Virus record (IMG/VR): IMGVR_UViG_2737471845_000015
Coordinates: 1-12,708 of that record
DNA: 12,708 nucleotides
From: a virus
Taxonomy: Duplodnaviria > Heunggongvirae > Uroviricota > Caudoviricetes
Strand: one strand, 5' to 3'
Shown here: in pieces, positions 9,346 to 9,731 of the stretch
Numbering within the stretch: the stretch's first letter is position 1
How the letters are laid out: every line of letters begins with the position of its first letter
Notes under the pieces: model-generated
Seen by the model: only the letters and a program-made list of their open reading frames with translations
Told to the model about the DNA's origin: nothing
Database searches by the model: none
Translations under genes and position numbers: made by a program

Positions 9346-9731
9346 AAACAACCTCCATTGTTAATAAACGCCGCTATCCTTCGGCGCATTCCATTTTTGC
9401 GCCGCGATTATACATACTTCAGCACGCAACACAAAAACCGCTTGCCAGCGCTCGTTGAGTCGGGTTACATTTCCGCTGCACCTCATAAAACGGGTGCCGG
9501 GATTCTCAACCCGCTGACTACACACGCGCACAACCGCGCCAGCGGTTTTTTTGTGCGTACTGTATTGCCACGTCTTTTTCGCGTCAGAATTATGGCGGGG
9601 CGTACGGGGCCGACTTCGGTCGGGCCGGGATCGTGTGTAGCCGGTGTTGAGAACCCCGTACGTCTCGCCACCCCGAGATTCTCAACTCTGGATGGTGAGT
9701 TTTCAAAACTTACTATACACGAGGCCACGTC
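9346..9731. promoter_or_regulatory. Structured intergenic control region with divergent promoter candidates and repeated GATTCTCAAC motifs
   Basis: Minus-strand promoter candidate for the membrane gene: TATAAT (plus 9407-9412) with TTGTGT 16 nt upstream. Plus-strand candidates: TTGCCA (9442-9447)-17 nt-TTACAT (9465-9470), and TTGCCA (9565-9570)-17 nt-AATTAT. Motif GATTCTCAAC at 9501-9510 and 9676-9685, inverted copy GTTGAGAAC at 9645-9653. UUCG-type hairpin CCGACttcgGTCGG at 9610-9623. Long-range stem CGTACGGGG (9601-9609) / CCCCGTACG (9654-9662). Confidence 0.45.
9532..9552 (+). terminator. Intrinsic terminator-like hairpin plus T-run within the intergenic region
   Basis: AACCGC (9532-9537), loop GCCA, GCGGTT (9542-9547), then a T-run to 9552 (7 T). 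It is on the plus strand, about 65-85 nt downstream of the TTGCCA/TTACAT promoter candidate. Confidence 0.5.

Follow-up and report, generated by a model that had tools for sequence, protein, structure and literature searches.

A predicted IsrK/seqA-type leader RNA and its C4-family antisense partner in the early region of a P88-like prophage

The immunity region of the satellite phage P4 is ordered PLE – seqA/t1 – cI (CI RNA, seqB) – seqC – kil/eta – epsilon – alpha. The CI RNA reportedly acts through seqA to enhance termination at t1, which lies between PLE and cI, and so regulates itself, a result attributed to Briani et al. in 2000. The immI regions of phages P1 and P7 have the order a1/b1 – c4 – a2/b2 – icd – ant1/2, and premature termination there is said, in work by Biere et al. 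in 1992, to follow from the block imposed by c4. In P4 the CI RNA pairs with both seqA and seqC, stopping expression of the replication operon (PMC4825925), and in P1 and P7 the c4 RNA acts on the first downstream gene by blocking its ribosome-binding site (PMC12197685). A related arrangement is IsrK – orf45/STnc1160 – anrP in Gifsy-1 (Hershko-Shalev et al. 2016, PMC4825925), whose IsrK gives the Rfam isrK family its name. IsrK has been described as structurally homologous to P4 seqA, and its downstream neighbour STnc1160 has been likened to the CI RNA; in Salmonella, IsrK is a stable short RNA that ends at the terminator of this element, with a fraction of transcripts reading through into the downstream operon, and in Gifsy-1 the central part of IsrK forms base pairs with the C4-like region that follows, and the short IsrK activates translation in trans (PMC4825925). 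Both IsrK and STnc1160 are highly expressed in Gifsy-1 lysogens (PMC7067206). Barquist et al. refer to an 'IsrK-C4 immunity system' and report that S. Typhi requires the IsrK-like elements of P4-like prophages (PMC3632133), and the Rfam isrK and C4 profiles detect relatives of seqA and CI (PMC10111431). The antisense 'immunity' RNA of such systems probably keeps prophage antirepressor and replication genes off.

The window described here, meaning the whole 12,708-nucleotide stretch of viral DNA that was analyzed, joins two prophages. Bases 1-4155 derive from the terminase/portal end of a lambdoid phage and are 99% identical to phage cdtI and phage Tritos, and the early region of a P88-like phage (Xuanwuvirus, Peduoviridae, P2 family) occupies bases 6854-12708. 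The P88 genes that lie 3' of the RNA region code for a 76-residue 'derepression protein', a 121-residue product and the replication endonuclease, and the same three are found in this order in the window. The first of these matches the Pfam Derepression family PF25738 at 29.1 bits (cut-off 27) and shares 30% identity over 50 residues with P4 epsilon, the helper derepression protein (BLASTP, E 4e-7); searches of NCBIfam with this epsilon-like ORF, the 121-residue ORF, a 157-residue ORF and the long open frame described below gave no matches. Similar sequence is present in 1181 of 5426 complete E. coli genomes, and over 9400-9760 E. coli O103:H2 12009 and O145 RM9872 are 99.7% identical to the window. 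The segment between the flanking genes carries no annotation in a RefSeq genome whose copy is 100% identical over 9400-9760, and in the P88 record a doubtful minus-strand CDS overlays the element.

Scanning the whole window against Rfam gives a match to isrK (RF01394) on the plus strand at 9478-9552, with a score of 61.8 bits against a gathering threshold of 50 (E 1.6e-11) and an alignment that spans model positions 1-77 of 77. Approximately 35-36 nt 3' of the terminator that closes this match begins a second, full-length match, to the C4 antisense RNA (RF01695; 76.8 bits, gathering 45), and the single-sequence minimum free energy (MFE) fold of 9588-9675, at -49.1 kcal/mol, reproduces the Rfam C4 structure. 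Since both are strong matches and both lie on the plus strand, the element is, as judged by covariance models, an IsrK-family RNA positioned upstream of a C4-family antisense RNA. The related model c4-a1b1 (RF03163, gathering 46.7 bits) has no match in the window at E values up to 1. The features of the region are as follows.

8923-10038, plus strand: long open frame of 371 codons, crossing the promoter, IsrK, C4, a2/b2 and the epsilon-like gene
9442-9470, plus strand: sigma-70-like promoter (-35 TTGCCA at 9442-9447, 17-nt spacer, -10 TTACAT at 9465-9470)
9478-9552, plus strand: predicted IsrK/seqA-type leader RNA, about 75 nt if ended at the T-run
9478-9497, plus strand: hairpin 1 (GCACCUC AUAAAA CGGGUGC), 7 pairs
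9498-9513, plus strand: hairpin 2 (CGGG-AUUCUCAA-CCCG), with a1 in its loop
9503-9510, plus strand: a1 core UUCUCAAC, in the hairpin 2 loop
9518-9526, plus strand: b1 CUACACACG, in the linker from hairpin 2 to the terminator
9532-9552, plus strand: predicted intrinsic terminator (AACCGC GCCA GCGGUU followed by U7), the positional equivalent of P4 t1
9588-9675, plus strand: predicted C4/CI-type antisense RNA (RF01695)
9629-9640, plus strand: b' loop of C4, the loop of its second hairpin, containing CGUGUGUAG
9646-9653, plus strand: a' GUUGAGAA of C4, in a single-stranded junction
9679-9686, plus strand: a2 UUCUCAAC, the second target of a'
9692-9716, plus strand: predicted hairpin between a2 and b2 that would bring the two sites together (single-sequence fold, -8.8 kcal/mol)
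9713-9722, plus strand: b2 CUAUACACGA (feature 9713-9724), overlapping the Shine-Dalgarno GAGG at 9721-9724
9732-9962, plus strand: epsilon-like ORF of 76 residues, the first gene after the RNA module (PF25738 Derepression)
10035-10400, plus strand: ORF of 121 residues and unknown function (phrog_3237)
10407-12707, plus strand: replication endonuclease of the P2 gene A type (Pfam Phage_GPA, 436.7 bits), running off the end of the window

The leader has the three-hairpin architecture of isrK, with hairpin 1, the CGGG-loop-CCCG of hairpin 2, and a terminator hairpin followed by a U-run. Its anatomy had been outlined in the original prediction, which placed a TTGCCA-17 nt-TTACAT promoter at 9442-9470 and a terminator hairpin with T7 at 9532-9552, both of which are present as described; its two stem-loops are also there, at coordinates shifted by one base from those first given (9478-9497 and 9498-9513). 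A promoter scanner calls the same site as TTGCCA-18-TACATT with 9 of 12 consensus matches, and the start of transcription is predicted at about 9477-9478, coinciding with the first base of hairpin 1. No LexA box is found near the promoter at up to two mismatches. A second promoter-like site at 9565-9593, before C4, was judged to be a chance match because its -35 is not kept in P88 and the start would land within C4.

Each of these features, considered without its context, is weak evidence. The region contains three promoter-like sites where 0.6 are expected and two terminator-like sites where 1.2 are expected; the leader folds with a z-score of -2.16, with 5 of 200 shuffled sequences folding equally well, and the single-sequence MFE structure does not contain hairpin 2. 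In combination the features are clearly not due to chance, because the isrK match is full length, the layout recurs in 67 of 73 related loci, and hairpin 1 covaries (see below). The C4 partner at 9588-9675 and the long open frame that crosses the element were two things that the original prediction missed.

Comparison of the leader with C4 indicates that the two RNAs form a pair, in which the loop of hairpin 2 and the adjoining linker provide the predicted upstream target, a1/b1, of the C4 RNA. Both a1 and a2 are exact complements of a' GUUGAGAA, b1 CUACACACG is the exact complement of CGUGUGUAG in the b' loop, and b2 can form 10 base pairs with b', one of them G-U, as read by eye. The b2 site is weaker here than in most relatives, with one G-U and only 6 contiguous Watson-Crick pairs. 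The Shine-Dalgarno GAGG at 9721-9724 sits 7 nt 5' of the ATG at 9732, which places the downstream target across the ribosome-binding site of the operon's first gene, the arrangement also seen for c4 in the P1/P7 immI region. As in P4, where seqA and seqC both complement seqB, the antisense RNA has one complementary site in the leader and another downstream.

Predicted duplex energies are -37.0 for a1b1 with a'b', -19.0 for a2 with a', and -19.2 for b2 with b'. When each 40-nt tile of either strand of the window was tried as a partner for the C4 core (9630-9662), the strongest, excluding the complementary strand of C4 and tiles within C4, was 9491-9530 at -40.0 kcal/mol, and the next targets outside the module were at about -31. 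The MFE structure of a leader that reads through (9478-9740) likewise pairs 9498-9525 with 9633-9658 through 24 base pairs. Whole-length RNAduplex comparisons of C4 with IsrK or with the downstream region barely discriminate (55 and 68 of 1000 mononucleotide shuffles, respectively, do equally well) because long GC-rich RNAs always find partners, and the scan of the core against tiles was used in their place, together with a comparison of cognate and non-cognate segments among related loci.

A search with a pattern derived from the C4 core retrieved 120 viral contigs, which with P88 and the E. coli copy gave 73 unique real C4 loci. The layout of the leader (a -10-like box, hairpin 1, CGGG-loop-CCCG, a linker, and a hairpin with a T-run) is seen in 67 of the 73; the -10-like box lies 6-8 nt before hairpin 1 in these relatives, and the terminator hairpin with its T-run ends 6-67 nt before C4. 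In an alignment of 63 sequences, P4 included, each of the seven base pairs in hairpin 1 has changed on both of its sides, pairing holds in 89.7% of cells as compared with 30-44% for slid partners, and none of 500 shuffles reaches the observed score; the CGGG/CCCG stem of hairpin 2 is nearly invariant in the same alignment. The search of Rfam and for covariation across related phages that had been suggested as a check returned a full-length isrK match, a covarying hairpin 1 and a hairpin 2 stem that hardly varies.

There are 50 distinct combinations of a' and b' among the related loci, and in all 50 an exact complement of a' at least 7 nt long is found both in the cognate a1 and in the cognate a2, the median for non-cognate segments being 5 nt; for b' the median match is 7 nt in b1 and 8 nt in b2, and 4 nt in non-cognate ones. 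Covariation of a1 with a' holds in all 33 types of a'. A composite alignment for formal counts of a1:a' pairs was dropped because lineages differ by one base in where a' stands relative to CCGGU, and choosing the register sequence by sequence would bias the count. Within the P88-like group the flanking sequences are near-constant, a1, a' and a2 change together, b1, b' and b2 change together, and the a and b sets reassort independently of each other. In every case b2 lies directly against the AGAGG/GAGG box of the epsilon-like gene. Together these patterns argue strongly, on comparative grounds, that the leader is targeted by the antisense RNA next to it. In two of the loci (L024 and L041), as read by eye, a hairpin of different sequence apparently occupies the place equivalent to 9692-9716.

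Since P4 and P7 share this layout, the element is very probably the leader that serves as upstream target (IsrK = seqA = a1/b1) in an antisense-RNA immunity module of the P4/P1 type, here residing in a P88-like E. coli prophage of the P2 family. The sequence comparisons themselves establish the family, the anatomy, the three-way complementarity with its covariation, and the placement of b2 on the ribosome-binding site. We infer the transcript ends, the processing of C4, C4-enhanced termination, the translational block and its polarity from the homologues, and the following sequence of events is proposed on that footing. Transcription would begin at about 9478, and most transcripts would end at 9532-9552 to give an RNA of about 75 nt with a1 presented in the loop of hairpin 2 and b1 in the linker. 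The C4/CI-type RNA at 9588-9675 would be carried on the transcripts that read through, and would be cut from this precursor. Its exposed b' loop and a' junction could then pair with a2/b2, covering the Shine-Dalgarno of the epsilon-like gene, such that this gene and, by polarity, the 121-residue ORF and replication gene A would be kept silent in a lysogen. The same C4 segments may also pair with a1/b1 in the nascent leader, making the leader the target that sets the level of read-through; in P4 this pairing reportedly raises termination at t1, and the CI RNA is thereby autoregulated. In read-through RNA that escapes processing, a1/b1 would presumably pair in cis with a'/b', and the free short leader could titrate C4 in trans, as shown for IsrK in Gifsy-1.

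The two functions first offered for the element, a small RNA of about 70-80 nt and a leader or attenuator controlling read-through into the replication genes, both suit this family. The first agrees with the stable short IsrK of Salmonella that ends at this terminator (PMC4825925), and the second with IsrK read-through, with the position of seqA/t1 before cI in P4, and with the presence of gene A downstream. The fold models themselves give no clear support for C4-enhanced termination: forcing a1/b1 to be unpaired in silico raises the probability of the terminator hairpin from 0.30 to 0.59 in the window, but among 59 relatives, some with poorly defined terminator helices, the same constraint raises it in only 32, lowers it in 9 and leaves it unchanged in 18.

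Another reading of the leader-C4 helix is that the short RNA acts mainly in trans as a decoy or activator, in the manner of Gifsy-1 IsrK, binding either free C4 RNA or the C4 part of transcripts that read through, and freeing the ribosome-binding site so that the antirepressor is turned on. Supplying IsrK in trans raised anrP translation more than 100-fold in Gifsy-1, and its authors note the complementarity of IsrK to STnc1160, a C4-like RNA (PMC4825925); the same helix is predicted in the window, and the window scores above the gathering threshold for isrK. However, seqA is needed to establish immunity in P4, and IsrK-like elements of P4-like prophages are required for growth of S. Typhi (PMC3632133), and these point to a repressive role. 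The Gifsy-1 mechanism moreover uses an orf45 that is coupled to anrP, whereas the corresponding frame in the window runs on to 10038. A predominantly activating role is thus somewhat unlikely, and it is in any case compatible with the upstream-target leader we favor and does not exclude it.

The statement that no ORF lies in the interval holds in the sense that none starts after the promoter and ends before the terminator, but the 371-codon frame at 8923-10038 reads through the whole of it. This raises the question of whether the interval is part of a protein-coding gene for an Ash- or Eta-like protein, with the RNA features incidental. The 380-nt 'intergenic' part contains no stop in this frame, and about 3% of shuffles have any frame open over such a length; its openness across the epsilon gene is unremarkable (P = 0.11). 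Residues 182-273 (nt 9466-9741) give a weak match to Pfam Phage_ASH, at 22.6 bits and below the 26-bit cut-off, and the same residues match PHROG 'transcriptional regulator' families. A conserved AUG at the 5' end of C4 belongs to this frame. Of 57 relatives, 42 have hairpin 1 a multiple of three nucleotides away from it, 39 of these with the frame open through the leader, and in the P88-like, Stx-like and P4-like groups an in-frame ATG lies 54-78 nt 5' of hairpin 1. In the Stx-like loci and in one further locus (L097) the frame continues into a longer protein, of 284 and 358 residues respectively, with an internal start that resembles the start of P4 kil.

The frame is also that of the P4 'cI 137 aa'/eta ORF. 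P4 eta is reportedly a real gene that is translated only from an upstream promoter and whose translation overrides immunity, as described by Forti et al. in 1999, and the lengths of the P4 ORFs agree with an eta gene in this frame. Nonetheless, we regard it as very improbable that the interval is simply coding, with RNA features that are incidental. The changes among relatives are compensatory at the RNA level and a T7 terminator stands inside the frame; the window translation is barely similar to P4 Eta (E 0.1); and the eta-type upstream ATG of the relatives is missing in the window, where the in-frame ATGs that are left (8923, 9016 and 9301) have no visible Shine-Dalgarno and are antisense to another gene. 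No kil-like ORF is present in the window. In P4 itself the ORF coexists with the RNAs and does not replace them, and the long frame, possibly a relic or analogue of eta, does not constitute an argument against the RNA.

A stand-alone, Hfq-dependent small RNA that regulates host mRNAs in trans would accord with the Rfam name of the family ('isrK Hfq binding RNA') and with a terminator hairpin and U-tract typical of Hfq-binding small RNAs, but is most unlikely given that the variable specificity positions in a1 and b1 track the neighbouring C4 RNA in every lineage, which is not the pattern expected of a conserved host mRNA target.

The element preferred here, an upstream-target leader, is in itself already known: it is a textbook IsrK/seqA/a1b1 leader of C4/CI antisense immunity in a known arrangement. 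What is new is limited to its lack of annotation and to its setting in a P88-like prophage of the P2 family, where the cargo consists of gene A and an epsilon-type gene. A real regulatory RNA was picked out from the letters of the DNA, and two Rfam models detect the module. The segments that determine specificity, a and b, differ widely among loci and reassort, which has a bearing on heteroimmunity between P2-like prophages and P4-like satellites. A broader proposal, which we put forward only tentatively and think rather doubtful as it stands, is that the IsrK-C4 module of P88-like phages, which lies within the early operon immediately 5' of an epsilon-type antirepressor and gene A, is a second, RNA-based immunity/induction switch of a complete P2-like phage, shared with the satellite P4, and that the long ORF represents a widely conserved 'eta-type' override. 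In that case ribosomes coming from the upstream early promoter would pass over the terminator and the C4 targets while translating, and lytic transcription would no longer respond to the RNA immunity.

The locus resembles the described systems in different respects. Like Gifsy-1, it has a short terminated RNA (predicted in the window) and an antirepressor-type gene 3' of it, and its 24-pair leader-C4 helix matches 'structure A' of Gifsy-1, in which about 30 nt of the C4-like region are base-paired with the central part of the leader (PMC4825925). Gifsy-1 is lambdoid, however, and its first 3' ORF is the 45-codon orf45, located inside the C4 region and coupled to anrP, whereas the equivalent frame in the window is not closed before the next gene and runs to 10038; the downstream effector is an epsilon-type protein in place of AnrP/AntQ. 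The effect of the leader is opposite in sign between the characterized systems, the P4 leader supporting immunity and the short RNA of Gifsy-1 activating downstream genes, and the cargo of the window is unlike that of either, with no kil- or icd-like first ORF and no NCBIfam match.

P1 and P7 share with the window a bipartite antisense RNA, two copies of its bipartite target, and a b2 placed on the ribosome-binding site of the first downstream gene, which is icd in P7. The P7 leader, as read from its sequence, also has hairpin 1, hairpin 2 and a T-run before c4. P7 scores 69.6 bits for C4, 55.5 bits for c4-a1b1 and 43.7 bits for isrK, so that its leader falls below gathering for isrK and above it for c4-a1b1, and the window shows the reverse. 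The cargo differs, being icd-ant in P1 and P7 and the epsilon-like gene with gpA in the window, where the first gene is of epsilon type and has no Icd-like match in NCBIfam; P7 also has a C1 operator upstream, and a comparable operator was not identified in the window.

The relationship to P4 includes several differences. The carrier is a complete P2-family phage of the P88 type and not a satellite, the replication gene is that of P2 gpA and not the alpha primase, and the eta frame lacks a first ORF resembling kil, which leaves the downstream site directly on the Shine-Dalgarno of the epsilon-like gene. The spacer from the terminator to C4 is about 35 nt as compared with 61 nt in P4-like loci, and the P4 leader, at 44.1 bits, can be scored against the c4-a1b1 model. 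In its overall plan, P4 nonetheless matches the window closely: at the experimentally defined seqA/t1 and cI of its left operon, isrK (60.8 bits, 8615-8692) and C4 (74.9 bits, 8420-8507) occur in the same order and with the same spacing, an intrinsic terminator lies between the promoter and the antisense RNA and ends the isrK match, targets of the antisense RNA are situated both 5' and 3' of it, a long open frame in the eta frame crosses the RNAs, and an epsilon homologue comes next, followed by the replication genes.

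The a and b specificity determinants of the immunity module, whose antisense RNA, C4, is at window 9588-9675, reassort independently among otherwise near-identical P88-like loci (L001, which is P88 itself, L024, L041, L054, L057, L067, L070 and L114), and L024 has the same a as the window with a different b. This pattern suggests, from sequence comparison, that immunity specificity is exchanged in modular fashion among the P88-like phages. One related locus, L031, is a natural variant in the a1:a' pairing: the a1 in its leader (5176-5267), AUUCUCAC, matches its own a' (GUGGAAA) imperfectly, with one mismatch and one G-U pair, whereas its a2 and b sites do fit their C4 partners. 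In the window a hairpin is predicted between the two target halves downstream of C4, a2 and b2, and would draw them together:

9692-9716, predicted intervening hairpin

On visual inspection, L024 and L041 also appear to carry a hairpin there, one that differs in sequence from that of the window.

Six C4 loci (L018, L036, L040, L042, L062 and L106) keep hairpin 1 and the a1 hairpin of IsrK, the leader RNA, but have no T-run terminator ahead of C4, which makes this terminator a frequent feature of the family and not a universal one. There is also a second promoter-like site:

9565-9593, TTGCCA-17-AATTAT, directly 5' of C4

It was rejected, and is probably a chance match, because its -35 element is not conserved in P88 and transcription would start inside C4.

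The whole RNA module, from the promoter through IsrK and C4 to the a2/b2 sites, is also crossed by a long open frame. It shares its frame with P4 eta, the P4 ORF that crosses the RNA immunity region, and corresponding frames are present in three related loci:

8923-10038, plus strand, long open frame of the window
L123 8168-8812, minus strand, corresponding frame
L008 748-1602, corresponding frame
L097 219-1295, corresponding frame

In many relatives the leader-to-C4 distance (96-150 nt) is divisible by three and the frame is open there, and many carry an ATG 54-78 nt 5' of hairpin 1, which the window lacks. The translated IsrK-C4 region matches several PHROG 'transcriptional regulator' families and, weakly, Pfam Phage_ASH. 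Annotation of the interval differs between records: in P88 (NC_026014) a 62-aa minus-strand CDS, SF19_gp13 (5033-5221), overlies both RNAs and is probably a spurious gene call, and in an E. coli RefSeq record (L002 4947-5332, equivalent to window 9352-9731) no feature is annotated.

Two prophages are joined within the window, one lambdoid (1-4155) and one P88-like of the P2 family (6854-12708), the latter end comprising integrase, repressor and early region:

1-4155, lambdoid terminase/portal end, 99% to phage cdtI and Tritos
5094-6218, minus strand, integrase of the P88-like part
6118-6531, minus strand, HTH repressor of the P88-like part
8878-9351, minus strand, 157-aa ORF (phrog_6315), no Pfam match

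Around the IsrK promoter, homology to P88 begins only at 9429, so the stretch immediately 5' of this promoter has been replaced in the window lineage; where the window has the 157-aa minus-strand ORF, P88 carries a plus-strand lipoprotein gene.
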